A DNA stretch of 24,000 nucleotides from Candidatus Electronema sp. PJ (GCF_048287395.1 NZ_JBLWEO010000083.1:6880-30879), one strand, 5' to 3'; positions 5,281 to 22,195 are shown, counted from the stretch's first letter. Program-made: numbers and translations. The notes: generated from the sequence alone by a model not told the origin.

Positions 5281-5518
5281 GCAGCAAGGGGAACAGGGTG
5301 TGCAGGTGAGCAAAAGCCCTCTGCAACGGGGAAAAATGGCCGTGCATCAGTGAAAAATCGTTCTGTAACGTGGAGAAATGACTGTGTAGCGGTGAAAAAT
5401 CACCCTGCACCGGTGAAAAATGATCGTGCAGTGGGTAAAAACGACAGTGCAGCAGGGAAAAACCATTCTGCAGCGGGGAAAAACGACTGTGCAGCACTGC
5501 ACCACCATTTTTCCCCGT
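5281..5518. repeat. Array 1: ten direct 21-nt degenerate tandem units plus one inverted terminal unit
   Basis: The GAAAAA-type core recurs at 5331, 5352, 5373, 5394, 5415, 5436, 5457 and 5478, exactly 21 nt apart. Weaker copies lie at 5289 and 5310. Unit consensus is about GCAGCGGTGAAAAAYNNYYGT. The last element is inverted (TTTTTCCCCG at 5508-5517) and pairs with CGGGGAAAAA at 5474-5483. Confidence 0.85.
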
Positions 5519-5526
5519 GTATTTAT

Positions 5527-5558
5527 CAGAAAACGGAAGGCCGCTGCCTCTCCTTCCG
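5527..5558 (-). terminator. Candidate intrinsic terminator for the minus-strand repeat/beta-barrel gene
   Basis: Stem CGGAAGG(5534-5540)/CCTTCCG(5552-5558). On the minus strand it is followed by TTTTCTGATAAATA. It lies about 20 nt downstream of the stop at 5580-5582. Confidence 0.5.
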
Positions 5559-5579
5559 CCTGAATAAGCAGCTGCCTCC

Positions 5580-7004
5580 TTAGAAGCGGAAGCGCAACCC
5601 GCCACCGATGCGGCCATATTTGTCCATATCGTCCAGCTCATCGGTGCCAACTCTGCCTTCCACGAAAATAGCCGCGCTGGTCGAGGCCGGAGCACCAAAG
5701 ATGCGCAGACCAATCTCGGCGATGTAGTCTGCTTGGCTGTCCTCGCTCGGCACTTCGTCTTCGCCATTGGTCATCCAGGAACCAACACCCAAGCCAAGGA
5801 AGAAGGGCGACCACGTTGCGCCGTGCGCTGAGGTGCATTGGTAGAAGTTATACTGCACCATGAGATCGAGCAGGAACGCATCGGCTCCAGCATCGCCACT
5901 GATCTTGGCTGCCCCGCCTGCTAAAGCCAAGAAGGAGAAGTGCGGATTAATAACATACTCCACGCCTAATCTACCTAGCCCGTAATCTGCTTCTTCTGGT
6001 TGCCGGAGATATCCTACGTCCGCAATGAAATGGAACGGCGACTCGCAGCACTGAGCCGCTGCACCCTGCACTTCTTTCACCACTTGCTTGACCACGGTTC
6101 GCGTCGGCCCAGGCACAGTGACTCGCTTCACGACGGTTCTGGTTGGGCCAGGCACATGGATAACCCGTTCCGGGCCAGGAACTTCCTTGACCACCTCTTT
6201 CACTACTTCTTTGACTACTGGTTTGTCCACGTATTTGATCACTTCCTTGGGCACGTAAACCGTCGGGCCAGTTACTTGTACTGGGCGATCAACATATTTG
6301 ATGACTTCTTTCGGAACATAAACCGTTGGCCCAGGCACCGGAACCTGCCGAACCACTTCTCTCACCACCGGGCGGTCAACATAAACCGTCGGGCCAGGAA
6401 CGGGAACCTGCACCTGCTTGATCACCTCTTGCGGGACATAGACGGTTGGGCCAGGCACCGGCACTTCCTTAATCACTTGCTGAATGACCGGGGCCTGCTG
6501 CTGCACTATTTGCACTGGCATCGGCGCAGGGACAGACTCCTTCAGGGCCAGATTGCCGCATTGCAGAGGTACGGCAAAGGTATAACGCTGGCCGTCCTTG
6601 TCAATCATAAACTCAAATACTGACAGCGGCGCATTGCCGCCCCAGGTCACATCCCGCGCTACCTTAACCCGGCCCTTGCCGTAGCGACGGAAGAGCATCC
6701 AGTCAATCTGCTGGCCTGGTAAGTAATCAACAATGGCGATCTGGGTCTGCGGATACTGGGCAATGTGGGCCTGCACCAGGGGGAAGAGGTCTGCATTGCC
6801 TGCTGCTGACATGCCCGCCTGGATATCGCCGCTCATATCCTGCATCATGGCCCGCAGATCCTCCACGGTTGATAGAGGTCGGGAAACCGGATGCGTACCC
6901 ACTGTCCTGAGAATACTTGCAGCCTGCACTTGGACTGCGCCTGTGGACGCAGTCAATGCGGCCAGCACTGCTACGGACACCAACATCTTTTTGCTCTTGT
7001 TCAT
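5580..7004 (-). CDS. Secreted protein: N-terminal globular domain, VPGPT/VKEV repeat linker, C-terminal OmpA-like 8-strand-type beta-barrel
   Basis: Start trimmed to ATG at 7004 (MNKSKKMLVSVAVLAALTASTGAVQVQAAS), which has AGGAGGAAG immediately upstream. The central region repeats PVPGPTVYVPKEVIKYVDRPV-like units. The C-terminus alternates hydrophobic residues and ends GGGLRFRF. Confidence 0.7.
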   Translation of the reverse strand: MNKSKKMLVSVAVLAALTASTGAVQVQAASILRTVGTHPVSRPLSTVEDLRAMMQDMSGDIQAGMSAAGNADLFPLVQAHIAQYPQTQIAIVDYLPGQQIDWMLFRRYGKGRVKVARDVTWGGNAPLSVFEFMIDKDGQRYTFAVPLQCGNLALKESVPAPMPVQIVQQQAPVIQQVIKEVPVPGPTVYVPQEVIKQVQVPVPGPTVYVDRPVVREVVRQVPVPGPTVYVPKEVIKYVDRPVQVTGPTVYVPKEVIKYVDKPVVKEVVKEVVKEVPGPERVIHVPGPTRTVVKRVTVPGPTRTVVKQVVKEVQGAAAQCCESPFHFIADVGYLRQPEEADYGLGRLGVEYVINPHFSFLALAGGAAKISGDAGADAFLLDLMVQYNFYQCTSAHGATWSPFFLGLGVGSWMTNGEDEVPSEDSQADYIAEIGLRIFGAPASTSAAIFVEGRVGTDELDDMDKYGRIGGGLRFRF

Positions 7005-7047
7005 CGCCTTCTTCCTCCTACATCTTTGTTGCATGTAATGAGCAGGC

Positions 7048-8727
7048 CTATTCCTGCTCAGAAATTGTCTGCCAATATGCTGGGTCAGCTGGGAATTCTT
7101 CCCGGCCAATCAAGGCCGCACCTACCGCGTTGCCCACTTCGTAATGCTCCGGGAAGCTGACGCTGGTGCGTAGCCGTTCTGCAACCGCAGGCAGGAAGCA
7201 GCGCGAGGCCGCACCAATGCCAATGATCGGGATCTTCACCGCCACGCTCAGGGAAAAGAGCGGGTTGTCCTTGCTGCTGAGAAAAGGGGCGGCCTCGCTG
7301 GCTGGCCAGACTTTGCGGGCCAGATAATCAAGGATGATGGTTTCAATAACTTGCTCGGTGGCTGCCACCACCCGCAGGCAGAGGCTTTCCACATCCATCT
7401 TCAGGGCCGCAGCCAAAGCAACAGCCCCGCGCTCGGCCTGCTCACGGTTGCCGATCTTCAGCTTGCCTAGGACATGCAGGGCATCAGTCGGCGTAAAGCC
7501 AATCATCCTGATCTGCTGGCGGTAGGTGAGTCGCTCCAACCATTTCTCTAACAGCACCCCAGACATGCCAATCTGCAGCGCCAAGGTCTCTGGGTTGGCT
7601 GCGCCATATTCGAGCAAACTGCGCAGGATTTCATCGTGCGAGGCTGCTGCTTCATCCAGCCCCTCTACCGGCATAACCAAGGCATTGCGCAGACCACAGC
7701 CCAACCAGTCTGCCGGATCTGGCAAACCAGTGGTCATAGACAGCGGCTGTACCCTCGTCTGCGCCAGACGAATGCTCGGGCTATGTTCTAGCGAGCAGAT
7801 AACATGGGAATCACCGCCCCCGCCTGCGGTGTACATGTCAATGGCCTCGATGTGGGTCTGCCACTGGCCGATCCGACAGCCTTCGTTGCTCAAGACCGGC
7901 CAACCGTTGCGGATCATACAGACATCAGTGGTTGTGCCGCCGACATCAACCACCAAGGCGGTCTGCTCGCCAGCGGTGCAACCGAAGCGGGCTGTAGCTG
8001 CCGGGCCACTGGCCACGGTAATTGCGGCTCGCTGCACGGCTTCGTCTAAGTTTGCGCCCCTACCGTTACCGCAGATGATCGTCACCGGGCAGTTTAGTCC
8101 GGCCCGGAGCATAGAAATCTGCACCGAGGAAAGAAAACCCACCATCAGCGGCATCAGGCGGGCGTGCAGGCAGGCCGTGGCTGCCCTGGCGTGCATTCCC
8201 GGACTACCGCTCACCTGATGCGAGCAGAAGACTGGCTTGGGATCGAGAATGCCAATGGCCTCTTCTGCCACCAACTCGTGGGTTGGGTTCTTGATCGACA
8301 TGGCACTACAGATCGCATAGCTATCTACCTCGCCGCGCAGGGCACGCACGGAATCCACCAGCCCTTCCAGATCAAGCGGCTCTTCTTCTTCGCCAGTGAT
8401 CTTATGGCCGCCCTTCATGAACACGCTGGCAGTCACTGGCAACTTGAAGTGGCGGACATGGCCAAAGACCAGCAAGGCAACCCGTGCGCCTCGTCCCTCA
8501 ACCACTGCGTTGGTAGCCAAGGTAGTAGAGACAGACAAACGGTTAACAGCCTCTGGTGGGATGCCAAAGGACAGGAGCCGCTCCAACACCTTGCCCACGC
8601 CAATGCCGAGATCGTGATGCGTGGTCGGCTCCTTGACCGAATGTGCCACCTGAAGGGTGGAATTGCTGATCAGAACGCCGTCGGTGCAGGTGCCGCCGGT
8701 GTCAATGCCGATGCAATAGCTGTCCAT
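7048..8727 (-). CDS. Hydantoinase/oxoprolinase-family (ASKHA-fold) protein
   Basis: Start trimmed to ATG at 8727 (MDSYCIGIDTGGTCTDGVLI). A second phosphate-binding motif is present (LVVDVGGTTTDVCMI). Both are typical of the hydantoinase A/oxoprolinase family. Stop codon is TAG. Confidence 0.7.
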   Translation of the reverse strand: MDSYCIGIDTGGTCTDGVLISNSTLQVAHSVKEPTTHHDLGIGVGKVLERLLSFGIPPEAVNRLSVSTTLATNAVVEGRGARVALLVFGHVRHFKLPVTASVFMKGGHKITGEEEEPLDLEGLVDSVRALRGEVDSYAICSAMSIKNPTHELVAEEAIGILDPKPVFCSHQVSGSPGMHARAATACLHARLMPLMVGFLSSVQISMLRAGLNCPVTIICGNGRGANLDEAVQRAAITVASGPAATARFGCTAGEQTALVVDVGGTTTDVCMIRNGWPVLSNEGCRIGQWQTHIEAIDMYTAGGGGDSHVICSLEHSPSIRLAQTRVQPLSMTTGLPDPADWLGCGLRNALVMPVEGLDEAAASHDEILRSLLEYGAANPETLALQIGMSGVLLEKWLERLTYRQQIRMIGFTPTDALHVLGKLKIGNREQAERGAVALAAALKMDVESLCLRVVAATEQVIETIILDYLARKVWPASEAAPFLSSKDNPLFSLSVAVKIPIIGIGAASRCFLPAVAERLRTSVSFPEHYEVGNAVGAALIGREEFPADPAYWQTISEQE

Positions 8728-8997
8728 GTCTATCGTGTCCGTCCTGTCTCGAGTCCCGCTGAAAAGTATTCGGAAATCATGTGCCTTGCTGAAGACTACC
8801 TGAAGAAGAGACATTGTAAACCGGTAGCTGCCGATTGTCCAGTACCGACTGAGTAAGTAACAGATGACTTGGCGTAGAGTAGGGCGAAGTTTCATCAGAA
8901 TGCGTTTGCATGGTAGGCGGAGAAGGAGTAACTTGCAGTGGATAAACTGCGCGGTGCTCACGCACAGCTCAGTTGCCAGTAACCTTCACCTTTTTCT

Positions 8998-10302
8998 ATG
9001 CAAATGACCGACCGAGCCAAAACCGTTGCTGATGCCTACCGGGCCTGCAACCCGGAAAAGCCTCTGTCTGCTGAGGATGATCGCTATGTTGATCTCTCGG
9101 AAAGCCGGGGCGTGGAGCATATTGCTGAACTCATCACCTGGAGAATCCAGAACAGCGAACCTGCCGTGCAAATCAAACAGCTTTTCACTGGCCATCGCGG
9201 TTCTGGCTAGACCACTGAGCTGTTTCGTTTGCAAAAGGAACTGGAGAACAACAAGTTCTGCACAGTGTATATGGACGTGGAAGAGCTGCTTGATCTGGGT
9301 TCGCTCAATTATCTTGACGTGCTGGTAGCTATCGCCCGCCAACTTCAGGAAGAGCTGGCCAAAAGAGACCTGCCGCTGCCAGATGTGCTCCTGAATAACA
9401 TCGCGAGCTGGTTTGACGAGTGTATTGTTGAAGAGACAAAGAGCACGGAAAAGCAAGGCTGCGTTGGAACTGAGGCGAAAGCAGGCAGCAAAATCCCCTT
9501 TTTCGCCGAACTGTTTGCCAGCGTCACCGCCAACATTAAGACTGGCAGCACCCAGCGGGAGACGATCAGGAAAAAACTGAGCCGGGAACTCAGTGTGTTT
9601 ATGGACAAGCTCAACCTGCTGATCAGTACGGCCCGCGAAAAGGTGCGCAAAAAAGGCTTTGCTGATCTTGTCCTGATTGTGGACGGCATGGAGAAGATGC
9701 ACTACGAGCTGAATTCAGAAGGTCAGTCCAACTACAACGTGCTTTTCATTCACAACGCCGAGCGGCTGCGGGCACCGGAATGCCACATCATTTACACCGT
9801 GCCGGTTTCGCTCGCCTATCAGCAAAATCTCAAGGCGTATTTTGATGACATTATCGTCCTACCGATGGTCAAGACGGATAAGCCAGGCATCAAGAAGCTG
9901 ATTGAGGTTGTCGAACGGCGAGTGGATACCAGTTTGGTCTTCGGCGGGCCTAAACTGCTGACCAAGCTGGCGCAGACCAGTGGCGGCGTGGTGCGCGACC
10001 TGATGCACTTGATACGGATGTCGATGGAGACCAAAGCCGAGCAGATTGGCGCGGCTGATGTGGATCGCGCTATCTCTAATCTGCGTAAAATCTATGATCG
10101 CCTGATTCGCGAAAACGATATCGAGCACTTCCAGCGGATTCAGCGCACTCGCCGCATCCAAGGCGGCGATGAAAAGGCGGGCCGCCTGCTTGACCAACGC
10201 TTAGTACTGGAGTATCAGAACGGCGATCTTTGGGCAGATATCCACCCAATCGTTCGCCAAATCCCCTGGGTCAAAGCTGCGCTGGCTGACCATGCAGCCT
10301 GA
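8998..10302 (+). pseudogene. STAND/AAA-like P-loop NTPase interrupted by one in-frame TAG at the Walker A lysine codon (9208-9210)
   Basis: ORFs 8998-9210 and 9229-10302 are in the same frame. Reading through gives ...IKQLFTGHRGSG*TTELFRLQKEL..., which is GxxGxGK[ST]T with the K codon replaced by TAG. A Walker-B-like, NACHT-like motif FADLVLIVDGMEKM lies at about 9661-9699. No other stop occurs in the downstream 364 codons. Confidence 0.6.
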
Positions 10303-11845
10303 AAGCACCGAATCCGTTATCAGCCGGATATGCCGCGCTCTGAGCTGGGCAGACGGCTTTGCCCTCTTCTTTGTCCTCGTCAATCTGCCAACAGCGCGGA
10401 AGGCCCTGGCCCGCCAAGTGATCACCCAGTTTGCGCGGCCCGTTGTTGAGCTGACTGTACCGCAGCAGGGCTTTGGCGGCACGACCTTAGACGGCTGGCT
10501 ACTGCCTCAGTTGTCAGGCACAGACGAAACCAGCCCGGTTTTCCTGCATGGCTTGGACCAGCTCCTGCCTAGCGGGCAAAAGCAGCTGCGGCATTTCCTC
10601 CAGCAGCTCAATTGGCGGCGTTCTGCGCTGGCTGCGATCAAGCGGCCTTTGGTGCTTTGGCTGCCGCGCCACGCTTTGGACAGCCTGGCCGAGTATGCGC
10701 CGGACTTTTACGACTGGTACAGCAATGTTTATGAGTTTGCCTCGCCGGATGAGGAAGCAGTGCAGCTGGGCAATGGCTTTAGGGCGGAATTCAACACCGA
10801 GGTGCATCCAGCCTTACGCCAAAGCAAGGCAGAAAAGGAGCAATGGCTGCACACCTTGACCGTGCTCCTGGATGAACACCCGGAACGCAACGCCTACCGG
10901 GCCAAGTTGCTTTATGATACAGGCCAACTGCATTATGCTCTGGGCAATTTGGATGATGCCTTTGCCTTGTACAAGCAATCACTCGACATCTACAGAGAAC
11001 TTGGCAACAAGCAGGGGGAAGGAGCACGTCTCAACAACATCTCTCAGATTTACCATACCCGGGGTGACTACGAAACCGCGCTCGAATATCTCCAGCAGGC
11101 ACTCGCAATTCAGCAGGAGATTGGCGATAAGCAGGGGGAAGGAGAAAGCTTCAACAACATCTCCCAAATTTACAAAGCCCGGGGCGAATACGAAACCGCG
11201 CTTAACTATCTTGAACAGTCGCTCAACATCCGCAGAGAACTTGGCGACAAGCAGAGAGAAGGAGTAATTCTCAACAATATTTCCGGGATTTACTATGCCC
11301 TTGGCGACGACGAAACCGCACTTAACTATCTTAAACAGTCGCTCGAGATCAGCAAAGTACTCGGCGACAAGCAGGGAGAAGGAGTAATCTTCAACAACAT
11401 TTCCCAGATTTACTATGCCAGTGGCGACGACGAAACAGCACTTAATTATCTTAAACAGTCGCTCGAGATCAGCAAATTACTCGGTGACAAGCAAGGAGAA
11501 GGAGTAATCCTTAACAACATCTCGTTGATTTATAAGGCCCATGGCGACTACGAAACCGCGCTCGACTTTCTCCAGCAATCACTTGTAATTCGTCAGGAGA
11601 CTGGCAACAAGGCAGGGCTTTGTACCACCCTATTCAACATCGGCCATCTTCACAGAAACAAAGGAGAAGAGGAAAAAGCCCGGCAAATGTGGGTGCAAGC
11701 CTATCTGCTGGCCAAAGAAATCGGCTACGCTGACGTATTGCATAATTTGGAGCAATTAGCCAAAAAACTTGGCTGGGAAGGCGGCTTACAGGCTTGGCAA
11801 ACACTGGCAAAGAAGTTCAACCTGGGCAAGACCAAGCCAGATTGA
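10292..11845 (+). CDS. TPR-repeat protein with an N-terminal domain of about 170 aa and unknown function
   Basis: The ATG at 10292 overlaps the NTPase stop (10300-10302) by 11 nt. There are about seven 40-aa TPR_12-like units, for example GDYETALEYLQQALAIQQEIGDKQGEGESFNNISQIYKAR. Confidence 0.85.
   Translation: MQPESTESVISRICRALSWADGFALFFVLVNLPTARKALARQVITQFARPVVELTVPQQGFGGTTLDGWLLPQLSGTDETSPVFLHGLDQLLPSGQKQLRHFLQQLNWRRSALAAIKRPLVLWLPRHALDSLAEYAPDFYDWYSNVYEFASPDEEAVQLGNGFRAEFNTEVHPALRQSKAEKEQWLHTLTVLLDEHPERNAYRAKLLYDTGQLHYALGNLDDAFALYKQSLDIYRELGNKQGEGARLNNISQIYHTRGDYETALEYLQQALAIQQEIGDKQGEGESFNNISQIYKARGEYETALNYLEQSLNIRRELGDKQREGVILNNISGIYYALGDDETALNYLKQSLEISKVLGDKQGEGVIFNNISQIYYASGDDETALNYLKQSLEISKLLGDKQGEGVILNNISLIYKAHGDYETALDFLQQSLVIRQETGNKAGLCTTLFNIGHLHRNKGEEEKARQMWVQAYLLAKEIGYADVLHNLEQLAKKLGWEGGLQAWQTLAKKFNLGKTKPD
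10890..11730 (+). repeat. Intragenic 120-bp tandem repeats encoding the TPR units
   Basis: The TCAACAACAT-type motif recurs at 11031, 11151, 11271, 11391, 11511 and 11631, exactly 120 nt apart. The units around 11300-11410 and 11420-11530 are nearly identical at the nucleotide level. Confidence 0.85.
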
Positions 11846-11859: not shown

Positions 11860-12150
11860 CTGCGCACTCCTTTGCCAGCTGCTTGCTCTGCTTGGTAAGT
11901 CGCTCGCCAAGGAGTTTGGCTCGGCAGAACTCCTTTCCTACTCGGCCAAACTCCTTTGTTGCCTAGCCGCATTCCTTTTCTGCCGACTCCAACTCCTTTC
12001 TTGCCGACTTGCACTCCTTTCCGGCCAAACAGCAAAGGAGTGCGGCCAAGCAAAACTCCTTTGTTGCCTAGCCGAACTCCTTTGCGGCTTGGCAAAACTC
12101 CTCTTCTGCCGAGTACAACTCCTTGCTTACCGACTTGCAAAGCAGGGGAA
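11860..12150. repeat. Array 2: about 14 phased 21-nt degenerate tandem units
   Basis: The ACTCCTTT-type core occurs at 11866, 11929, 11950, 11971, 11992, 12013, 12055, 12076, 12097 and 12118, all in 21-nt register. Inverted cores AAAGGAGT/AAGGAGT lie at 12034 (in register) and 11909 (1 nt off register). Unit is about ACTCCTTTSTTGCCGASYYRM. Confidence 0.85.
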
Positions 12151-12184
12151 ACAGGTGGCAATGGCTGGGAAATCCAGCGAAATC

Positions 12185-13822
12185 CTACAACAGCCCGTTC
12201 ACTATCGCCTTGGCCTCGTCCTGAATCCGGGCCAAGTGCGCCGCATCAATGAAACTCTCGGCGTAAATTTTGTAGATGTCCTCGGTGCCGGAAGGCCGCA
12301 GGGCGCACCAGCCGTTGGCCGCGACAATCTTCAGCCCACCGATGGCTGCGCCGTTGCCCGGTGCTTTGGTGAGAATGGCAACGATGGGTTCTCCGGCCAA
12401 GGTTTTCACCGGCACGTCCTCCGGCTGCAATTTCTTCAGCACCGCCTTCTGCACGGGCGTGGCGGGCGCGTCAATGCGAGCATAAACCGGCGCACCAAAC
12501 TGCTGCGTCAGATCTTGATAGTATTCGCCCGGATCGCGTCCGGTTCGCGCCGTGATTTCAGCCGCCAGCAGGTTGAGGATGATGCCGTCCTTGTCCGTGC
12601 TCCAGACCGTGCCGTCCTTGCGCAGGAAGCTCGCGCCCGCGCTTTCCTCGCCGCCAAAAAAAACTTTGCCCTTGAGCAGGCCGTCCACGAACCATTTGAA
12701 ACCGACCGGCACTTCAACCACTTTGCGGCCCAGCGCGGCGGCGGCGCGATCAATGATTGAGCTGCTGACTAAGGTTTTACCTATACCCAAATCAGCTCGC
12801 CACTGCGGACGATGCTGGGCTAAGTAGGAAATAGCGACGCTCAGGTAGTGATTTGGGTTCATCAGGCCCATGCTCTTGGTGACAATGCCGTGGCGGTCAA
12901 AGTCGGTGTCGTTGCCAAAGGCGATATCAAAGTCCGCCTTCATCGCCACCAGCCCGGCCATCGCGTAGGGCGAGGAGCAGTCCATGCGGATTTTGCCATC
13001 CTTATCGCAGTGCATGAAGGAGAAGGTGGAATCGAGCGTGTCGTGGAAAATCTCCATGTTCAAGCCGTATTGCGCCTTAATCGCCTGCCAGTAGGCCATG
13101 CCTGCGCCGCCCATTGCGTCCGCGCCAATGCGGATGCCGGACTTGGCAATGGCCTCCATGTCAATCACTTGGGTCAAATCCTTGACATAAGGCAGCACGT
13201 AATCGTACAAACGCAGTGTCTCCACCTTGAGCGCGTCCGCCAGCGGCAGTATTTTTACTCCAGCTAAATTGTCTTCAAGCAGCTGGTTAGCGCGGGCCTC
13301 GATAACGCTGGTCACATCGGTATCTGCTGGGCCACCATGCGGCGGATTGTACTTGAACCCGCCGTCAGCAGGCGGATTATGTGACGGGGTGATGACGATG
13401 CCGTCGCAAAGCGGTCTGCCCTGCTGGTTATGGGTGAGGATAGCGTGTGAGATGACTGGTGTGGGCGTGTAAACCGAATTCCCAGCGGCAATACAGACCT
13501 GTACCTTGTTGGCGGCCAGCACTCGCAACGCCGTGAGCTGGGCAGGCCAGGAGAGCGGGTGGGTATCCATGCCCATGAACAAGGTGCCATTGATGCCTGC
13601 TTCACGTCGGTAATCACAAACAGCCTGGGTAATGGCCAAGATGTGCGCCTCGTTGAAGCTGCGCTTAAGCGCACTCCCACGATGGCCAGAAGTGCCGAAG
13701 CTGACTCTTTCCGCGCTCTGCTGCGTATCAGGAATCAAGGTAAAATAGGCGGAAATTAATTCCGGGACATTGATTAATATCGATTGCGGGGCAGGCAGGC
13801 CTGCTAAAGGGTGGGTGCTCAT
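12185..13822 (-). CDS. pgm: Alpha-D-glucose phosphate-specific phosphoglucomutase
   Basis: Start trimmed to ATG at 13822 ([12 protein letters not shown]...), with AGGAGGAA upstream. The product is 546 aa, the same length as E. coli Pgm. Active-site loop is [17 protein letters not shown]. Metal loop is GADAMGG. C-terminus contains ...[18 protein letters not shown]. Confidence 0.92.
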
Positions 13823-13950
13823 GGTTCCTCCTGTGCTGTTTACTGGTCGTGCTGCTTCTCTGCTGCGGCAAAAGTATCCCGTCTTCGTCAATCTTGCCAG
13901 AGAAAAACAGCAGTTGGCAGGCAGCCTTGCCCAGAAAAACGCAGAAAGCC

Positions 13951-13979
13951 GTTGACAGCTTCTGCTGTTTAGCATAAAG
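13951..13979 (+). promoter_or_regulatory. Candidate sigma70-type promoter for rpsU
   Basis: TTGACA (13951-13956), a 17-nt spacer, then TAAAGT (13974-13979). It lies about 70 nt upstream of the rpsU ATG. This is sequence pattern only. Confidence 0.35.
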
Positions 13980-14051: not shown

Positions 14052-14246
14052 ATGATAGAGGTTGAAGTTAAAGGAGACCTTGAGTACGCGATTCGTCAGT
14101 TAAAGAAGAAACTACAGATTGACGGCATCAAACGTGAACTCAAACGGCGCGAGGCTTACGAGAAGCCCAGCATTAAAAAACGCCGCAAGTCTGCTGAAGC
14201 CCTGCGCAAGCTGCGCAAGTACAACCGGATTAAAAACCGGATGTAG
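14052..14246 (+). CDS. rpsU: 30S ribosomal protein bS21
   Basis: A 64-aa, highly basic protein with the S21 signature (LRKLRKYNRIKN; EAYEKPSIKKRRK). AAGGA lies upstream of the ATG. Confidence 0.93.
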   Translation: MIEVEVKGDLEYAIRQLKKKLQIDGIKRELKRREAYEKPSIKKRRKSAEALRKLRKYNRIKNRM

Positions 14247-14254
14247 GTTTTCAG

Positions 14255-14292
14255 GCCCTGCCACTGTTCCACTTGGCAGGGCTTTCTTTTTT
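14255..14292 (+). terminator. Intrinsic terminator after rpsU
   Basis: Stem GCCCTGCCA/TGGCAGGGC followed by TTTCTTTTTT. Confidence 0.75.
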
Positions 14293-14318
14293 ACTGCCCT
14301 CCTCGCCACTGCTGTTCT

Positions 14319-15369: not shown

Positions 15370-15951
15370 ATGAACCCGATGCGACATTTACCGAATCTGA
15401 TTACTGCTGCCCGCCTTATCCTCACCTCGCTACTGGCTGTGCTGCTGATGTTTGTTGAAGAAGAGAAAAAAGGGCTGGCTGTGCTCTGCTGTCTGTTGTT
15501 CACTATTGCTGCGGTCACTGACTTGCTTGATGGTTACGTGGCCCGTCGCTACGGCGCAGTCAGTACCTTGGGCAAACTACTCGACCCCTTGGCCGACAAA
15601 CTGCTGGTAACGACGGCCTTGATCATGCTCATTCCCCTGAATCGTTTACCCGCCTGGATCGCCCTACTGATTCTCTCGCGCGAACTGCTGGTAACAGGAC
15701 TGCGGGGCATTGCTTCTTCTGCCGGAATTGTGGTGGCGGCAAGTGGGTTAGGCAAGATCAAATCCATTACCCAGTACGTTGGGCTTGGCATCCTCATTTT
15801 TCCCCTCGGTGTCCTGCCGATCCCATTCCTACATCACCTCGGCCTCTTCCTGGTCTATATCGCCCTGGTGCTGACCTTATGGTCAGGCGCAGACTATTTC
15901 TACCGCCTACGCCGAGTCTTTTTGGCGGAAGAGGACAGTAATCAAGCATAA
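15370..15951 (+). CDS. pgsA: CDP-diacylglycerol--glycerol-3-phosphate 3-phosphatidyltransferase
   Basis: Start trimmed to ATG 15370 (MNPMRHLPNLITAARL). CDP-alcohol phosphatidyltransferase motif is DLLDGYVARRYGAVSTLGKLLDPLADK. Multiple TM segments. The 193-aa size is typical for this enzyme. Confidence 0.88.
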   Translation: MNPMRHLPNLITAARLILTSLLAVLLMFVEEEKKGLAVLCCLLFTIAAVTDLLDGYVARRYGAVSTLGKLLDPLADKLLVTTALIMLIPLNRLPAWIALLILSRELLVTGLRGIASSAGIVVAASGLGKIKSITQYVGLGILIFPLGVLPIPFLHHLGLFLVYIALVLTLWSGADYFYRLRRVFLAEEDSNQA

Positions 15952-15953
15952 CC

Positions 15954-16655
15954 TTGTTGTTAAAGCTTACCTTCATGCCAGGTCTTGATGGAACAGGGAT
16001 CTCCTTCGAGCCTCTGCGCAGATTTCTGCCTCACAATATTGCCGCTACCGTTATCCGATATCCGTCAGACCGGCTCCTCTCTTTTGCAGACACTGTTGAT
16101 TGCGCTTTCGAGCAGATTGCGGGAGAGCAAGACATCATAGTAGCAGAATCTTTTTCAGGGCCGGTAGCAATTGCACTTCTTGGATCAGGCAGAGTCAAAG
16201 CCAAAGGAGTCCTTCTTTGCGCTACCTTTGCTCGGCTACCCAAACGATTCGCTTTCCTGAATATGAACGCATTGCCTCTTGAATTCGGCTTTCGTGCTCC
16301 GTTTCAGAACCTACTGCTGCGGTATTTTATTGGCAATGCAAAGAAGAGGCAATCTCTTGAATCCATGCAGGAGCGAATAGCAGAGATCGTTCCCGTGAAA
16401 ACAATAGTTCATCGGATTCGTTTGCTTTCATCTCTTGATGTCCGTCCGTGGCTTCCGCATCTCAAGATGCCTTGCTGGTACATTCGGCCAACCAGGGATA
16501 GGCTTCTTCCGGCAAAGGTAGCTACTGATTTTGTTCAGGCGATACCCCACCTAGTCATAAAAGAGATACCGACATCCCATTTCGTTCTTCAGTCAGAGCC
16601 AGCAGTTTCAGCAGCAGTGATAGAGGAATTCATGAAAATCATACCTTGTGGATAA
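15954..16655 (+). CDS. Alpha/beta-fold hydrolase (start uncertain: TTG 15954 or ATG 15975)
   Basis: N-terminal PGLDGTG oxyanion-type motif and a nucleophile-elbow-like IVAESFSGPVA. The length fits an alpha/beta hydrolase. No specific family was recognised. Confidence 0.6.
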   Translation: MLLKLTFMPGLDGTGISFEPLRRFLPHNIAATVIRYPSDRLLSFADTVDCAFEQIAGEQDIIVAESFSGPVAIALLGSGRVKAKGVLLCATFARLPKRFAFLNMNALPLEFGFRAPFQNLLLRYFIGNAKKRQSLESMQERIAEIVPVKTIVHRIRLLSSLDVRPWLPHLKMPCWYIRPTRDRLLPAKVATDFVQAIPHLVIKEIPTSHFVLQSEPAVSAAVIEEFMKIIPCG

Positions 16656-16714
16656 CGCCGATTCGTTTCTTCATCCCACACCCGCCCTTGCCTCTCATCC
16701 ACGTTGGAGGGAAA

Positions 16715-17021
16715 GTATCATCTAGATGCGTCACTCAGGGTCATCAGGATGAGTCTTTCCTGTCATCTATATGAGTCTCCTAGGGTCATATAGATGACAC
16801 TTCTGGTATCATATAGATGGTACGTTCCCTCCAACGTATATAAGTCCGACCGACTTATACACGTATGTCCCTCGGACATACGTACGTTGGAGAAAAACTG
16901 GATCCTACGTTTGAGACTTCCTCGAACGTACGTTCCAGCATGTCTCGAACGAGTGTTTGAGGATTCCTCAAACGTACGTTTGACTTTTTCTCGAACGCTC
17001 GTTTGAGATTTTCTCAAACGT
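16715..17021. repeat. Array 4: about 13 phased units of 22-23 nt, each an internal palindrome or hairpin
   Basis: Family A has core TCATNTANATGA at 16718, 16741, 16763, 16786 and 16809. Family B consists of ACGT-bounded 23-nt hairpin units starting at 16861, 16884, 16907, 16930, 16953, 16976 and 16999. An example is ACGTATGTCC-ctc-GGACATACGT. Another is CGTTTGAGA-ttt-TCTCAAACG. A 14-bp perfect stem pairs 16761-16774 with 16786-16799. Confidence 0.85.
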
Positions 17022-17046
17022 ACGATCTAGTTTCCCGCCTCTGTTC

Positions 17047-17075
17047 TTGACAAACCGGGCTAGGCTCCGTATGCT
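17047..17075 (+). promoter_or_regulatory. Candidate sigma70-type promoter upstream of thyX
   Basis: TTGACA (17047-17052), a 17-nt spacer, then TATGCT (17070-17075). It lies directly downstream of array 4 and about 110 nt upstream of the thyX ATG. This is sequence pattern only. Confidence 0.3.
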
Positions 17076-17183
17076 GGTGGAGCAGGTCTTTTATCCCCTC
17101 GCATCAGCATCTTAACGCCCAGAGAAGAGCAATCTCCATCATTGGCAGACTTGAAATAACGTTCCTTCAAGAAAGTTGCATAC

Positions 17184-18113
17184 ATGAAAATCATCGCCCC
17201 GTCGTTTACTGTCCTTGATCATCTTGATCAGCAGAGCCTTGCTGTCCGCATCGAATATTGCGGGCGGATATGTTATAAGAGCGAAGATCGCATCACGCAT
17301 GAATCGGCCCTGCCATTTGTTGAGAAGATGGCCGAGCATGGTCACAACTCGGTGCTAGAAATGGGCGTAGTCACGCTGGAGGTCTGCGCAGAGGCAAGCG
17401 CGATCTATGAGCTTTTCCTTTGCCAGCCCAAATATTTGCACATCAGCCGCGAAGAGAACCGCCTGCTGATTACTGGCAGCATCCGAGCCTTCCGGGAAAT
17501 GCTGATGTTCCATCCAGACTGCGCTGTTATCCGGGCAACCTGTGCCTTGCTCAATGACCGCCACCCATATTTTTTCAGCAATATCCTGCCTGAAGGTGGG
17601 CTTGCCGCTGTGCCGTCGATCCTCGTGCGTAAGGTACCGCTTGAGGAAGTGGAGCGGTTGCCCATGAGAGAGCGTGCCAAACACCGGTACCTTGCGGTCA
17701 AGTTTGTTGTCAACCGCGCCGTGACCCACGAGATTGTCCGGCACCGCGTATGCAGTTTTTTGCAAGAGTCACAACGGTATTGCCGCTACAGCGACGACAA
17801 GTTTGGCAGCGAAGTGACCTTCATTAAGCCGATGTTTTGGGAAGAAGGCAGCGCGGAATATGCCATCTGGCAGCAGGCCATGCAGGAAACAGAACAGCTC
17901 TATCTGCGCCTACTCGAAACCTCGACAGCCCAAGCAGCACGGACAGTGCTGCCTAATTCGTGTAAGACCGAGATTATCGTCTATGCTAATCTGGAGCAGT
18001 GGCGACATATCTTCAAACTGCGCTGTTCTAAAGCGGCAGAGCCGTCTATGCGGGAAGTGATGGTGCCGCTAAGGGAGGAGTTTCAGCGGCGGTTTCCTGG
18101 CGTGTTTGTCTGA
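17184..18113 (+). CDS. thyX: FAD-dependent thymidylate synthase
   Basis: ThyX signature RHRxxSxxxxSxR is present as VRHRVCSFLQESQRY. At 309 aa it is at the long end for ThyX. Confidence 0.88.
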   Translation: MKIIAPSFTVLDHLDQQSLAVRIEYCGRICYKSEDRITHESALPFVEKMAEHGHNSVLEMGVVTLEVCAEASAIYELFLCQPKYLHISREENRLLITGSIRAFREMLMFHPDCAVIRATCALLNDRHPYFFSNILPEGGLAAVPSILVRKVPLEEVERLPMRERAKHRYLAVKFVVNRAVTHEIVRHRVCSFLQESQRYCRYSDDKFGSEVTFIKPMFWEEGSAEYAIWQQAMQETEQLYLRLLETSTAQAARTVLPNSCKTEIIVYANLEQWRHIFKLRCSKAAEPSMREVMVPLREEFQRRFPGVFV

Positions 18114-18173
18114 TCATTGCCCAGTGGAACGGGGAATCAATCTCTTTATGTTATAATGGAGTAACGGTTAGAA

Positions 18174-19358
18174 ATGAGTGCTGCAAAAAAGATGCTGGCC
18201 TTGGCCGAAAAGTCTTCCTGGATCCGCAAAATGTTCGAGGAAGGTGCTCGGATGAAGGCGAAGTTCGGGCCGGAGAATGTGTTTGATTTCAGCCTTGGTA
18301 ACCCGGATGTGCCGCCGCCGCGACAATTTTACCGGGTGCTGACTGAGTTAGTCCAAGCAACTCAGCCTGGAATGCACGCCTACATGCCCAACAGTGGTTA
18401 TCCCCACGTGCGGGAGGCCGTAGCAGCCCGGCTGGCACAGGAGCAGGAGGTGGCCATCAGTGCAGGCGATGTCCTCATGACCTGCGGGGCTGCGGGTGCC
18501 TTGAATGTGGCGATGAAGGCACTGCTCGATTCTGGTGATGAGGTCATTATTATTAGCCCCTTCTTTGTCGAATATACCTTTTATATTGACAATCACGGCG
18601 GGGTTGCCAAAATCGTGCCTGCGGATGCGGAATTCAACCTCGATCTTCCAGCCATTGAAGCGGCTTTACAGGACAAGACCAAGGCTGTGCTGATCAATAG
18701 TCCTAACAACCCAACAGGTCAGGTGTACAGCGCAGAATCGCTTGCTGCCCTGGGTAGGCTTTTGGCTAGCGGGGGCGAGCAGTTTGGGCACCCCGTTTAC
18801 CTGATCGCTGATGAGCCGTACCGCAAAATTATCTATGATGGCGTGGCAGTACCTTCAGTCATGACCGCGACCGTCAATTCTATTGTGGTGTCCTCGTATT
18901 CAAAGGACTTGTCTTTGCCCGGCGAGCGTATTGGCTATTTAGCTGTGCATCCTGAGATGCCGGACAAGGTTGCCTTGCTCAATGCCATGACTTTGGCCAA
19001 TCGGATCCTTGGCTTTGTCAACGCCCCCGCCCTCATGCAGCGGGCTGTCGCCCAGCTTCAGGATGTGAGCGCGGACATCTCCATTTATGCCAAGCGGCGC
19101 GACCTGTTCTGCAAGATTTTAGATGAGGCGGGCTTTGAGTATGTCCGGCCTAAAGGGGCGTTTTATCTCTTCCCTAAAACCCCGATTGATGATGTGGAGT
19201 TCTGTCAGCTGCTGCTGCAAGAAAAGATCCTGGCCGTTCCTGGACAAGGCTTTGGCAGACCAGGCTATATTCGCCTGGCCTTCTGTGTCGAAGAGGAGAT
19301 CATCAGCAAAGCAAGCGAGGGCTTCAAAAGGGTGATGCTATCTCTGCGTCGGCAATGA
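18174..19358 (+). CDS. PLP-dependent aminotransferase, class I/II (aspartate/alanine aminotransferase-like)
   Basis: PLP-lysine motif SYSKDLSLPGERIGY. INSPNNPTGQVY block. C-terminal GYIRLAF. Confidence 0.88.
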   Translation: MSAAKKMLALAEKSSWIRKMFEEGARMKAKFGPENVFDFSLGNPDVPPPRQFYRVLTELVQATQPGMHAYMPNSGYPHVREAVAARLAQEQEVAISAGDVLMTCGAAGALNVAMKALLDSGDEVIIISPFFVEYTFYIDNHGGVAKIVPADAEFNLDLPAIEAALQDKTKAVLINSPNNPTGQVYSAESLAALGRLLASGGEQFGHPVYLIADEPYRKIIYDGVAVPSVMTATVNSIVVSSYSKDLSLPGERIGYLAVHPEMPDKVALLNAMTLANRILGFVNAPALMQRAVAQLQDVSADISIYAKRRDLFCKILDEAGFEYVRPKGAFYLFPKTPIDDVEFCQLLLQEKILAVPGQGFGRPGYIRLAFCVEEEIISKASEGFKRVMLSLRRQ

Positions 19359-19511
19359 TGCTTTGGCCTGGGAGAAAGTTCCGTTCTGAGTGTGGGAAAA
19401 CACCCCATGCTCCATCTTGAAGAGAACGTTTTCCCAGGCGCAAAGAAAAAAGAGGTATCGGCGACAGAAATAGGACTATTCCTCCTTTTGGCCACCGCAT
19501 ACCTCTCTTGT

Positions 19512-20669
19512 TCAATCTCTTTCCGGCCTGACTGCCTCTTGCTCTTCAGCCCGCATTGCCAGCGCATCCTCCAGAATGGCACTGACCTCGTTGGCAGCCC
19601 GCTGCATGGCTTCATCGCGGTAATGGGCGTACCGCTGGGTCATCTGCGGACTTTTGTGCGTCATCAGCTTTTGCAATGTGAACATGTCCACCTTGCCGCT
19701 ACTGGCCAGCATGGTGGCATATACATGTCGCAGCCCATGTAATGGCCGGAAATCTGCGGGCAACCCAGCTGTATCCCTAATCGCCCTGACCTCCTTGGCA
19801 ATGTCGTTGCGCTGGCCACCACCTTGGGCCGGGAAAACATATTCACCGCCCTGCTTCGCGAGGGATTGGAACAAAGCACTTGCGCTGTTGTTGAGCGGAA
19901 TCTTCTGACTCTTCCCACCTTTTGGCTCCCGGATATGGATGAAGCCCCGCTCGAAATCTATATCATCCCATTTCAGCTTGAATAGCTCGCCCCGGCGCAT
20001 ACCAGTATATAATACGAGCCGCATCATGTTAGCCGCTGGAACGCACGTGCTTGTCTCCATCGCTTTAAAGAGCCTCCGCATCTGCTCTGGGGTCAAGTCT
20101 TCGGTCTTGATGTTGTCAACAGAGGGCATGTCAATCTTGAAGGACAGGGGGGCAGTCCAGCCTAGCCCGCAGCCGTAATTCACAATCCTCTTCAGCAGAG
20201 TTAGAACATGCTTCACCGTCTGTGGTGCAAGGGTTTTCAGCAGGTTTGTTCGTAGTCGGTCAATGTCCAGCTTAGTAAGCTCGTGCGGCTCTTTGCTACC
20301 AAAGAGTTGCTTCAGGTATTTTGCATATCTGCCAGCATCACTTTGGGTTGACCGGCTGTCAGGTAAGCAAGCGCGGTAGGCTTCCCACAGATGCGCCACT
20401 GTTCGCCGTTGACTGATCTCTTCATCAGCGGCCTTGCGTCTGTCGCGATTACTTTGCTGTTTGCCTTCGATTTTATCTGAGCGGATGCCTGCGGCTTTAA
20501 CAGGAGTCATGTTGTCCTGGTACTGGCGGCCTGCCTTTTCTTCAACCAATTTTCCGTCTTTTCTGTAGCGGATATAGTAGATCCGCTCCGTCTTTTTCCC
20601 GTTGGCTGCCATGCCCTCAATGTAGAACACCCCGGCATAGTTTGTTTTATACCGTTTCATGCTTGCCAT
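19512..20669 (-). CDS. Tyrosine-type site-specific integrase (phage integrase family)
   Basis: Catalytic residues appear intact: TGMRRGEL (Arg), HGLRHVYAT (HxxR) and RYAHY (Tyr). The N-terminal SAM-like/arm-binding region is present. Confidence 0.88.
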   Translation of the reverse strand: MASMKRYKTNYAGVFYIEGMAANGKKTERIYYIRYRKDGKLVEEKAGRQYQDNMTPVKAAGIRSDKIEGKQQSNRDRRKAADEEISQRRTVAHLWEAYRACLPDSRSTQSDAGRYAKYLKQLFGSKEPHELTKLDIDRLRTNLLKTLAPQTVKHVLTLLKRIVNYGCGLGWTAPLSFKIDMPSVDNIKTEDLTPEQMRRLFKAMETSTCVPAANMMRLVLYTGMRRGELFKLKWDDIDFERGFIHIREPKGGKSQKIPLNNSASALFQSLAKQGGEYVFPAQGGGQRNDIAKEVRAIRDTAGLPADFRPLHGLRHVYATMLASSGKVDMFTLQKLMTHKSPQMTQRYAHYRDEAMQRAANEVSAILEDALAMRAEEQEAVRPERD

Positions 20670-20785
20670 GATTCATTTCTCCCAGTACATTTCTAGCTTA
20701 GCTTCAAGCTAATGGCCTCTTGCTCCCCACCCTATTCCCCACGATAGCCGTAACTATACTGGTAAATAAGAGAGAAGTCGATACC

Positions 20786-21895
20786 ATGAAGGATTCCTTT
20801 GTAACCGGACAGCGAATTCACAAGCTGCAAGCATCGTTGCGGAGCCGCAATCTTGATGCCATTCTGATCACTGAGCCGGCAAACCGGCGGTATCTCAGCG
20901 GCTATACCCCTGTTGATCACGACATCCAGGAAAGCTCTGGTATCCTGCTGATCCCCAAAAAAGGCAGTCCCTGGTTGCTGACTGACTCCCGCTTTGAGCT
21001 GCAAGCCAAGGAGGAGGCCGTAAGTTTCACGGTCGAGCTGTACCGGAAAGGGATGTCTGTCTTGCTTAAAACACTGCTACCTTCTCTAGGGATAAAGCGA
21101 TTGGCTTTTGAGAGCCATTATTTTCTTCATTCTGCGGTTGGCAGACTTGGAGAGGTACTGGGGAAAAGCGTGGACCTGGTGCCGCTCACTGGTTTGATTG
21201 AACGGATGCGGGTGATTAAGAGTGAGGAGGAAATCCGTCTGCTGAAACAGTCTGTCCTGCGCAACGAGCAGGTGTTTCAGCAGGTGCGCAGCATGATCGC
21301 GCCAGGCATGACCGAGATCGACATCGCCTTAACCATTGAGCGCACCATGCGGGAGCTAGGCGCAGAGCGGCCCAGCTTTGAGACCATCGTCGCCTTCGGC
21401 TCTAATGCCGCCAAGCCCCATGCTGTGCCGTCAAACCGGGTGCTGAAGGAGAACGAGCTGGTTCTCATCGACATGGGCCTGGTGTTGCAAGGCTATTGCT
21501 CCGATATGACCCGTACCTTTTTTCTTGGCGAACCAGACAGCATGTTTCTTGAACGGCTGCGAACCGTGCGCCGGGCACAGCTTGCTGCGACCAAGGCAAT
21601 CCGAGCCGGTGCCGTCTGTCGAGCAGTGGATCAGGCGGCCCGGCAAATCATTGCCAATGCAGGCTACGGCAGCTATTTCGGCCACGGTCTTGGGCACGGA
21701 GTCGGTCTCGCTGTGCATGAGTCGCCGCGCCTCAGTGCGCGTAGCCGAAAACAGCTGCAAGCCGGGATGATCGTCACTATTGAACCGGGCATCTATCTGC
21801 CTAGCTGGGGTGGTATTCGGCTAGAGAATATGGCCGTTGTCCGCGAGGAAGGCTGCGAGCTGTTGAATGAGGATATCAGCGGTTTGGATCTGTAG
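20786..21895 (+). CDS. M24-family Xaa-Pro aminopeptidase/dipeptidase
   Basis: Start trimmed to ATG 20786 (MKDSFVTGQRI). Pita-bread metal ligands are present: LIDMGLVLQGYCSDMTRTF, HGLGHGVGLAVHESP, VTIEPGIY and IRLENM. Stop codon is TAG. Confidence 0.88.
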   Translation: MKDSFVTGQRIHKLQASLRSRNLDAILITEPANRRYLSGYTPVDHDIQESSGILLIPKKGSPWLLTDSRFELQAKEEAVSFTVELYRKGMSVLLKTLLPSLGIKRLAFESHYFLHSAVGRLGEVLGKSVDLVPLTGLIERMRVIKSEEEIRLLKQSVLRNEQVFQQVRSMIAPGMTEIDIALTIERTMRELGAERPSFETIVAFGSNAAKPHAVPSNRVLKENELVLIDMGLVLQGYCSDMTRTFFLGEPDSMFLERLRTVRRAQLAATKAIRAGAVCRAVDQAARQIIANAGYGSYFGHGLGHGVGLAVHESPRLSARSRKQLQAGMIVTIEPGIYLPSWGGIRLENMAVVREEGCELLNEDISGLDL

Positions 21896-21924
21896 TTCAA
21901 CCTAGAAATGCAACTAAACTACTG

Positions 21925-22195
21925 TTGCAGTTTATCCGCAAAGGTCTTTTGTTAAGCCGCAAAAAGTTGTTGCTTAACAAAAGATCTTTGTTGTTTGGCA
22001 ACCAAGAGTTGTTGTTTCGCCGCAACCTTCTTCTGCTTGGCAACAAGAGGTTTATGCCGAGCCAAAGAAGGTTGTTGCTAAACAAGAGAAGGTTGTTATT
22101 TGGCAAGAACCTTCTCTTGCCGAGCTGAAACCTTTTGTTGCTCGGCAACAACTCTTCTTTGCCGAACAACAACCCTTTGTCAGCTAACTGTTGCC
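21925..22195. repeat. Array 3: about 12-13 phased 21-nt degenerate tandem units with embedded inverted repeats
   Basis: The TTGYTNRGCA-type anchor occurs at 21949, 21970, 21991, 22012, 22033, 22054, 22075, 22096, 22117, 22138 and 22159, exactly 21 nt apart. Perfect 12-bp inverted repeat CTTTTGTTAAGC(21946-21957)/GCTTAACAAAAG(21972-21983). Perfect 9-bp inverted repeat TTGCCGAGC(22117-22125)/GCTCGGCAA(22140-22148). Confidence 0.85.

Follow-up and report, generated by a model that had tools for sequence, protein, structure and literature searches.

In a stretch of 24 kb of the freshwater cable bacterium Candidatus Electronema sp. PJ, several of the larger gaps between genes are filled by short units repeated at intervals of exactly 21 or 23 nucleotides, and the question raised by this locus is what kind of element these arrays are, how they arise and whether they have a function. 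The initial annotation of this stretch (the window, below) had described three arrays of 21 nt, at the convergent kinase, TPR/PGM and pepP/S8 protease junctions. These are called A1, A2 and A3 here, and a fourth array, of 23 nt, is called A4. The arrays are real and restricted to one lineage, and they seem to form a variant of extragenic repeat arrays that has yet to be described. The reading preferred here, at a probability of roughly 0.4 for the whole of it, is that they are self-complementary, satellite-like arrays specific to freshwater Candidatus Electronema, produced by local duplication and flipping of units, with the 21-nt class acting as 3' untranslated region (UTR) and terminator blocks that resemble bacterial interspersed mosaic elements (BIMEs).

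Periodicity was assessed with Tandem Repeats Finder (TRF) and with a lag-autocorrelation scan, z being calculated at the best lag relative to dinucleotide-preserving shuffles. The scan detected four periodic regions in the 24 kb, and no more: 5236-5535 (period 21/42), 11861-12165 (period 21), 16691-17045 (period 23) and 21906-22185 (period 21). TRF called 21-nt arrays at 5322-5495 and 11973-12124 and 23-nt arrays at 16718-17024; it missed A3 because the units of this array are in mixed orientation. The fraction of matches at lag 21 is 0.53-0.64 in A1, A2 and A3 (0.53-0.69 at the best lag), compared to about 0.32 in shuffles, with z = 12.5-22.5. The three arrays are therefore real; A2 and A3 are also related to each other (below). 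According to the gene calls, each fills a convergent gap: A1 between the kinase gene and a gene for an IMCp-like protein (5276|5580), A2 between the TPR and PGM genes (11845|12185), and A3 between pepP, encoding an M24 peptidase with 100% identity to a protein of Candidatus Electronema sp. PJ, and the S8 protease gene (21895|22198).

A1 (about 5301-5518, + strand) is situated in the 3' region of the histidine-kinase gene, whose stop codon is at 5276. It is composed of two degenerate 21-nt units, eight good direct units (consensus TGCAGCGGGGAAAAATGACTG, 5322-5489) and one inverted unit, for a count of 8-9 direct units and 1 inverted. The match fraction (f) is 0.64 at lag 21 and 0.69 at lag 42 (z = 22.5). 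A5-tracts are phased at 21 bp in this array (R = 0.81-0.99). Intrinsic curvature was considered as a trait of the family and rejected, since phased A-tracts are confined to A1 and its orthologue.

A2 (11867-12160, no strand assigned) has 14 units of 21 nt (z = 16.9), each consisting of a 7-nt core, CTCCTTT, and a quasi-palindromic spacer of 14 nt (tTGCCnAGCCaa). At 11909 and 12035 the core is inverted without leaving the lattice and reads AAGGAGT; there are 2-3 flips among the 14 units, and the outer arms of the array (11869-11929 and 12104-12164) are 77% complementary. A3 (21914-22190, also without an assigned strand) has 12-13 units of 21 nt (z = 12.5), in which a core, either AAGAGGTT or AACCTTCTT, is joined to a spacer of the form TTGCnnnGCAA. 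From 21998 on, the units of A3 are oriented + - + + + - - - -, and the array is strongly self-complementary, matching its own reverse complement in nhmmer with E = 2e-15. When A2 and A3 are printed in register, the core of 7-9 nt can be seen to flip in place on the lattice in both. The similar length and mixed unit orientation reported initially for the three arrays are borne out by these alignments.

The fourth array of the window (16700-17040, z = 21.4 as a whole) has a period of 23 nt and is made of two sub-arrays in a tandem junction, after an abhydrolase gene and before thyX. A4a (16700-16830, no strand assigned), downstream of the abhydrolase gene, has about 5 units of a 12-nt palindrome (TCATCTAGATGA) and an 11-nt spacer (z = 5.5 alone). 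A4b (16874-17040, no strand assigned) has 7 units of a palindrome of about 20 nt (TCTCGAACGTACGTTCGAGA) and 3 nt (z = 15.8), and ends 13 nt before a promoter-like site of thyX (ATG 17184). This site is a sigma-70-like promoter match, TTGACA-17-TATGCT, at 17047-17075 on the + strand, and is a match to the consensus only.

The window thus holds five distinct array sequences within 24 kb, with a common anatomy: a conserved core of 7-12 nt and a less conserved, often palindromic spacer, set on a rigid lattice of 21 or 23 bp. Together with the arrays in relatives described below, lattice periods are exact – 21 in A1, A2, A3 and the L171 array, 23 in A4a, A4b, L089a, L089b, L086 and L172 (z = 4-22). 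The common period of 21 nt claimed initially is exact for A1-A3, but it is not unique, as a 23-nt class also exists. TRF and autocorrelation also reveal higher-order structure of 42/63 nt. With nhmmer, each array has a match to itself in reverse complement (E from 0.0085 for A1 to 4e-23 for L089b), because direct and inverted units coexist, and long inverted arms bracket the arrays. The z values of predicted RNA folding relative to shuffles are -2.6/-3.3 for A1, -5.3/-5.0 for A2, -12.4/-9.2 for A3 and -14.2 for A4 (16656-17060).

Contigs of relatives were fetched via homologues of pepP and of the IMCp-like protein (gene 5580-7046). The freshwater-Electronema sample comes to about 89 kb from five or six genomes, and cable-bacterial DNA in all to about 109 kb. 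The relatives of most use here are L171 (81% amino acid identity to PJ in the kinase and 90% in the IMCp-like protein), L089 and L086 (85% and 83% in pepP, respectively) and L172, which is Electronema sp. VV. One control was 1.26 Mb of distant-bacterial loci from a PGM search of genome contigs; the other was 0.79 Mb of metagenome loci from a pepP alignment search, mostly with generic M24 peptidases. About seven of the metagenome loci from the pepP search are Desulfobulbaceae-like.

Nine arrays were found in the ca. 89 kb of freshwater-Electronema DNA. A1 itself is present, with its 21-nt period, at the orthologous convergent kinase/IMCp junction of L171 (nhmmer E = 2e-28). Three relatives have, between them, four 23-nt arrays with palindromic units, all promoter-side: L089a (GATAGTACTATC palindrome plus 11 nt, f = 0.76) between a canonical pntB terminator and the next gene, L089b (CCCATAGCTATGGG-type) upstream of pntA, and one each in L086 and L172, in the divergent regions upstream of orthologous genes for a 358-aa protein. 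There is no array in 21 kb of marine Ca. E. halotolerans, nor in other Desulfobulbaceae-like contigs, which come to about 65 kb. The 2.04 Mb of other bacteria contain no 23-nt array and a single 21-nt array, which is coding, inside a 221-aa open reading frame (ORF). The 358-aa protein (L086 3283-4359 (-), L172 3784-4860 (-); 54% identity) has no Pfam domain, and may have a connection with the array or simply lie next to it.

The copy of A1 in L171 made it possible to follow the presence and turnover of an array between species, a comparison that had been proposed initially. The two arrays align colinearly, with one exact 21-nt indel, that is, one whole unit, and one 1-nt deletion. Identity between PJ and L171 is 78% in the array, 69-70% in the adjacent non-repeat intergenic DNA and 60% at the 4-fold sites of the flanking genes (n = 480), and the inverted terminal unit is identical at 21/21 positions. 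This alignment indicates that A1 is inherited from the common ancestor of the PJ and L171 species. Conservation differs by position within the unit (chi2 = 60, df = 20, p = 7e-6): in 17 units T1, G2, A4 and the A-run are nearly invariant, while positions 5 and 17-21 are free. L171 also has an insertion of ca. 170 bp that is not found in PJ (~1690-1860), between the terminator and the stop codon of the IMCp-like gene; it holds GC-rich hairpins (GGGCGGCCACAGGGGGCCGCCC; TAGGGGTAGGCCCCTGTGCCTACCC) and could represent another small element, of a mobile or REP-like kind.

A second pair of orthologous sites has a different history. L086 and L172 are much more divergent than PJ and L171; the position, period and palindromic character of their arrays are kept, and the sequences are not alignable. 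Since position is kept and sequence replaced, either the units are continually re-homogenised or the architecture is selected, and the persistence of periodicity at this divergence argues that this is not a decaying neutral array.

Within the window, A2 and A3 share 73 pairs of 21-mers that agree at 15 or more of 21 positions (0.8 +/- 1.6 in shuffles), their local alignment score is 38 (16.8 +/- 1.9 in shuffles), and they match in nhmmer with E = 9e-8. By these comparisons A2 and A3 are homologous at the level of the unit; there is no colinearity between them at the scale of the array. Between A1 and either A2 or A3, the best agreement is 14/21, there is no 21-mer pair at 15/21 or above (0.5-1.1 in shuffles) and there is no nhmmer cross-match. 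A layout anchored on YTGC, which the initial annotation had seen in A1 as well as in A2 and A3, is accordingly at the level of chance. Apart from the A2/A3 pair, no unit family was found outside its own array in the ca. 109 kb of cable-bacterial DNA. The proposal that each array has its own core and was generated locally holds only in part: A1 is inherited, and A2 and A3 share ancestry.

The arrays had been thought to prefer convergent junctions, and a tally of gaps of at least 150 bp, based on gene calls in freshwater-Electronema loci and including the 23-nt array of the window and the arrays of L089, L086 and L172, does not support this. Arrays fill 3 of 5 convergent, 2 of 5 divergent and 2 of 4 tandem junctions, so there is no general convergent preference; about half of the larger gaps are filled, whatever the junction type. 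All sizeable convergent gaps of the window had been described as filled. Three are, but the fourth, 19358|19512 (153 bp), has no array, only ordinary hairpins. Convergent junctions in the relatives are mostly narrow, at 3-46 bp, and free of arrays. Position does appear to differ between the two periods: the independent 21-nt arrays are all convergent and directly follow stop codons, and the 23-nt arrays, which are at least as common, are all promoter-side (Fisher's exact p ~0.03-0.05, with 6-7 arrays only). This positional split is a lead, not a result.

The terminator role suggested initially is partly supported for A1. At its distal end, about 200 nt past the kinase stop codon, a hairpin with a U-rich tail (5474-5527, + strand) is formed by the last direct unit (5474-5494) and the inverted unit (CTGCACCACCATTTTTCCCCG, 5497-5517), joined by a CA loop; its predicted energy is -24.1 kcal/mol (z = -4.1). 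The homologous hairpin in L171 has -21.5 kcal/mol and the tail CUUUUUCU, and is of canonical intrinsic terminator form. As modelled, the terminal hairpin of A1 is likely the intrinsic terminator of the response regulator-histidine kinase operon. It is the invariant positions of the A1 unit (TGCA and the A-run) that are paired in this hairpin with the inverted unit, and the variable positions fall in an internal loop. The IMCp-like gene has an ordinary intrinsic terminator (5522-5558, - strand; CGGAAGG...CCTTCCG followed by UUUUCUG) that is outside A1 and conserved in L171. Each of the two converging genes at A1 thus has a hairpin of its own, and array units make up only one of the two. In A3 there are several very strong hairpins with U-rich tails behind them, such as that at 21938-21991 (-31.2 kcal/mol). 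Ordinary single-hairpin terminators are used elsewhere in this genome, as there is a textbook intrinsic terminator at 14254-14295, after a small gene of 64 aa (MIEVEVKGDLEYAIRQLKK..., 14053-14247 (+)), below the 100-aa limit of the ORF list, that by eye resembles the one for ribosomal protein S21 (rpsU).

The initial annotation had associated the arrays with no named element class, and none was found. Searches of Rfam at the gathering threshold and at E <= 1 gave no real match, a chance miRNA match apart; full-text literature searches gave no named class or description that fits; and the papers on cable-bacteria genomes covered by them discuss only repeats of insertion-sequence type >250 bp and no such arrays. 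BoxC/PIT intrastrand-triplex elements and the 'multicopy sequence' elements of Geobacter were rejected, because the literature describes different elements under these names. Lattices like those of A2 and A1 were also sought in viral contigs (IMG/VR, L173-L220), where the best 12 of 48 matches, mostly in phage or giant-virus contigs, look like coding heptad repeats and unrelated. A 21-nt CTCCTTT/AAAGGAG lattice is found in 46 IMG/VR contigs, and the best matches look like 7-aa coding repeats, many of them in giant-virus metagenome-assembled genomes – a reminder that 21-nt periodicity elsewhere is usually coding.

Among known systems the arrays are most like the repetitive extragenic palindromes (REP) and BIMEs of Enterobacteria and Pseudomonas. 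These too are extragenic, with short stem-loop units (imperfect palindromes, as in the arrays) in both orientations; they are often found after stop codons and between convergent genes, as is the 21-nt class, and are inherited vertically at orthologous sites. They can act as terminators or 3'-end protectors and as platforms for gyrase and IHF. However, REP/BIME units are 20-40 nt, one family occupies hundreds of loci, there is a cognate RAYT transposase, and the units alternate regularly. The Electronema arrays have a rigid 21- or 23-nt lattice and nearly every array has a sequence of its own, their orientation is irregular (9 direct units and 1 inverted in A1, the irregular series given above in A3), and 23-nt arrays are found in divergent promoter regions (L086, L172), which REP/BIMEs avoid. 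No RAYT (Y1/HUH) transposase is encoded among the genes of the window, according to a Pfam scan of the window only. By this comparison, what separates the arrays from the family is regular alternation and perhaps also dispersal of units, which was looked for in ca. 109 kb.

Other classes share part of the anatomy. Minisatellites, or variable-number tandem repeats (VNTRs), have head-to-tail units of 10-100 bp, are intergenic, change in whole-unit copy steps and have higher-order repeats, and the arrays, with one exact 21-nt indel between PJ and L171, fall within the formal definition. Ordinary VNTRs, however, have arbitrary periods and direct units only, while the ten Electronema arrays, from four or five genomes, have only two periods and inverted units that keep the lattice, and are self-complementary. 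Iterons and type Ib/II centromeres (R6K, RK2, P1 incA, F sopC, omega heptads) have a spacing of ca. 22 bp, sometimes with mixed orientation, and are bound cooperatively by dimeric proteins; they are single loci beside rep or par genes, with one sequence per replicon, in contrast to the Electronema arrays, which are many, chromosomal and of differing sequence, and do not have a rep or par gene beside them. Intrinsic and bidirectional terminators consist of a hairpin and U-tract just past convergent genes, a form seen in the distal unit pair of A1, but a terminator is one hairpin of 20-40 nt and the arrays are 130-300 bp. Miniature inverted-repeat transposable elements (MITEs), such as pneumococcal BOX and Correia/NEMIS, are 100-350 bp, intergenic and modular, with an inverted, long-hairpin form. 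They have many near-identical copies with target-site duplications, neither of which was found for the arrays, the unit-level similarity of A2 and A3 apart.

Under the preferred reading, an array would originate through local amplification and flipping of a hairpin arm. It would then change by whole-unit gain and loss and by flips in place, that is, by local duplication and recombination with homogenisation, a process only partly visible in the present alignments, and would not derive from repeated insertion of one dispersed mobile sequence. Because the 21-nt class directly follows stop codons, these arrays would be transcribed as a repeat-built 3'UTR. A transcript entering the array would fold into a multi-hairpin block, in which unit pairs may supply the terminator hairpin, as the structure of A1 suggests, and the hairpins probably also protect the 3' end of the transcript. 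The 21-nt class would in this respect behave like enterobacterial REP/BIME arrays, without being a member of the family. The 23-nt class is probably a product of the same DNA-level process, and its candidate effects are insulation from upstream read-through or protein binding.

Several observations weigh against this reading. One hairpin is enough to terminate transcription, and the keeping of 10-14 units is unexplained. There are few canonical hairpin and U-tract terminators in A2 and A3. Arrays are also found at sites at which an mRNA would not be expected to end, namely at divergent junctions (L086 and L172) and, in L089a, after a separate canonical pntB terminator, so an RNA-end function cannot cover the whole family. 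A1 is only slightly above the neighbouring intergenic DNA in conservation (78% vs 69-70%), and its conserved positions fit a bipartite protein-binding motif equally well. Orthologous unit pairs of PJ and L171 agree at 15.5 of 21 positions and non-orthologous pairs at 14.2, a marginal difference (permutation p = 0.02); as orthologous pairs are barely more alike than others, what is conserved is mainly the unit consensus. The asymmetry of G-U vs A-C wobbles, at sites that are not independent, does not single out either strand as the RNA. That sequences without relationship have one exact period speaks for a ruler, such as helical phasing or the footprint of a protein, and local duplication does not provide one. 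In addition, the Electronema sample is only about 89 kb. With unit number, exact period and the promoter-region 23-nt arrays all unexplained, a DNA-level ruler, in the form of a protein or helical-phase platform, is favoured as the main rival, beside neutrality.

Such a platform would be formed by rows of dyad-symmetric sites about two helical turns apart, bound by a nucleoid-associated or insulator protein, or by gyrase as at BIME-2, with a topological or transcriptional barrier between transcription units as the outcome. This is possible, though somewhat unlikely. The sequence varies freely on an exact period of 21 or 23 bp, units or spacers are palindromic, and period and position are kept upstream of the orthologous gene in L086 and L172 despite full sequence turnover; arrays occur in every junction type, non-transcribed promoter regions included; and the position-specific conservation of A1 fits a bipartite motif, TGCA-N6-AAAAA, with A5-tracts phased at 21 bp. 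However, a different palindrome in each array would call for one sequence-specific binder each, or for a structure-specific binder. A-tract phasing and curvature are features of A1 and its orthologue only, a spacing of 23 bp does not correspond to whole helical turns, and there is no gene for a candidate binding protein beside the arrays in the gene annotation of the window. A function may be missing altogether if hairpin-promoted slippage or template switching, particular to this lineage, amplifies local palindromic seeds into neutral satellite DNA that is tolerated. This reading is likewise possible, though somewhat unlikely. Much of the distribution is consistent with it: the arrays are dense and confined to one lineage, they occupy about half of the large gaps regardless of junction type, whole-unit indels and higher-order repeats are present, sequence is turned over at a conserved position, and the unit-to-consensus identity of A1 (77-80%) is close to that expected from neutral decay of a perfect ancestral array at the observed 4-fold divergence. 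It is at odds with the strongly non-uniform substitutions in the A1 units (p = 7e-6), with the 21/21 conservation of the inverted unit, and with a cross-species unit identity of 68-74% that exceeds the 60% at 4-fold sites; moreover, random seeds would not all yield exactly 21 or 23. A broader proposal, which seems unlikely, is that the arrays form a dedicated repeat system of freshwater cable bacteria, with a 21-bp lattice at 3' ends and a 23-bp lattice at promoters. Selection would hold period and position while sequence turns over. A structure- or spacing-specific protein, or supercoiling-driven cruciform extrusion, would read the arrays, and these would be insulators or topological barriers, comparable to eukaryotic satellite/insulator arrays and distinct from REP, CRISPR and iteron elements.

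The remaining explanations are less probable. A dispersed mobile repeat of the REP/BIME-RAYT or MITE type, in which a few transposase-spread families have since diverged, could account for the homology of A2 and A3 at a distance of 10 kb, for the terminal-inverted, self-complementary architecture of all arrays, and for the odd positions of A2 and A3, beside a PGM gene of Campylobacterota type and where the downstream neighbour of pepP has been replaced relative to four relatives; two tyrosine recombinase genes also lie between these arrays. It is nonetheless improbable: A2 and A3 apart, no unit family recurs in the ca. 109 kb of cable-bacterial DNA, the likeness of these two is at unit level and not colinear, the genes of the window include no HUH/Y1 transposase (Pfam scan), no target-site duplications were seen by eye, and there is no blastn match in plasmid or phage collections. 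A MITE in particular was rejected, for although the inverted, long-hairpin architecture is present, there are no near-identical copies in the available loci, phages or plasmids. That the arrays are RNA-product loci – a sponge RNA for an RNA-binding protein or the ribosome, or a source of phased small RNAs or guides of 21-23 nt – is very improbable. The cores AAAGGAG, AGAAGG and GGGGA are purine-rich and Shine-Dalgarno- or GGA-like, long double-stranded hairpins are predicted (z down to -14) and the unit has the length of a typical guide (an analogy only), but only about half of the A1 units contain GGA, no motif is common to the different arrays, Rfam gives no match, there is no sign of dedicated promoters, and arrays are found in non-transcribed promoter regions and after terminators. 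A CsrA sponge of the CsrB/RsmZ type was rejected because GGA is not conserved across units and there is no Rfam match. The chance that something ordinary has been misread is close to negligible. A period of 21 nt equals 7 codons, and open frames cross the arrays on both strands, but coding heptads are contradicted by both strands being open in several phases, by low-complexity translations, by the 1-nt deletion in L171 and by the 23-nt period, which cannot code. CRISPR loci do not fit, as it is the entire 21/23-nt unit that repeats, with 'spacers' of 6-14 nt that are similar among themselves, and a Pfam scan of all window genes found no cas. The spacing of iterons, ca. 22 bp, and the phasing at about two turns would suit an iteron or partition centromere, but there are no rep or par domains in the window, and there are five array sequences in 24 kb. 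An assembly artefact is contradicted by the same array in an independent assembly (L171).

A few of the neighbouring genes have unusual features of their own. The gene beside A1 (window 5580-7046 (-); L171 212-1678; L172 10001-11446) encodes a protein specific to cable bacteria. All 36 homologues of this IMCp-like protein are from Electronema or Electrothrix, some being annotated 'IMCp domain-containing', and there is no Pfam match. The gene has internal coding tandem repeats that differ between species in period and copy number: of 39 and 12 nt in the window (6082-6225), of 30 nt in L171 and of 87 nt x 3.8 in L172. Upstream of A2, the TPR gene (10292-11845) has coding repeats of 120 nt (40 aa, TPR_12; TRF 10982-11563). 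An ORF at 9229-10302 (+), which has no Pfam match, runs into this gene and overlaps a long ORF on the opposite strand (8986-9702 (-)) by about 470 bp.

On the other side of A2, the nearest relatives of PGM (12185-13975 (-)) among 185,000 species genomes are from Campylobacterota (74-75% identity), not Desulfobulbaceae, and from these matches the gene was likely acquired horizontally; translation probably begins close to residue 52 of the ORF as listed. Ca. E. halotolerans has a different, 457-aa PGM-family gene near pepP. The synteny around pepP differs in every relative. In four of them (L084, L086, L089 and L170), pepP is followed after 3-4 bp by a convergent gene of 380-389 aa. In PJ this neighbour is replaced by A3 and an S8/PKD protease gene, with a tyrosine integrase gene immediately upstream (window 19512-22198).

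If the pattern extends genome-wide, at about 1 array per 10 kb, Electronema genomes of ca. 3 Mb would carry a few hundred arrays. Such a repeat class, set by lattice and symmetry and not by sequence, is invisible to BLAST- or family-based annotation. The arrays are candidate VNTR markers for strain typing of uncultured cable bacteria and a likely cause of breaks in short-read assemblies. They would also offer a system for asking how a period stays constant while sequence turns over, whether by a helical or protein ruler or by concerted evolution, and would bear on whether, in a bacterium that is filamentous and multicellular, transcription units are organised by 3'UTRs and terminators built from repeats or by phased binding platforms.

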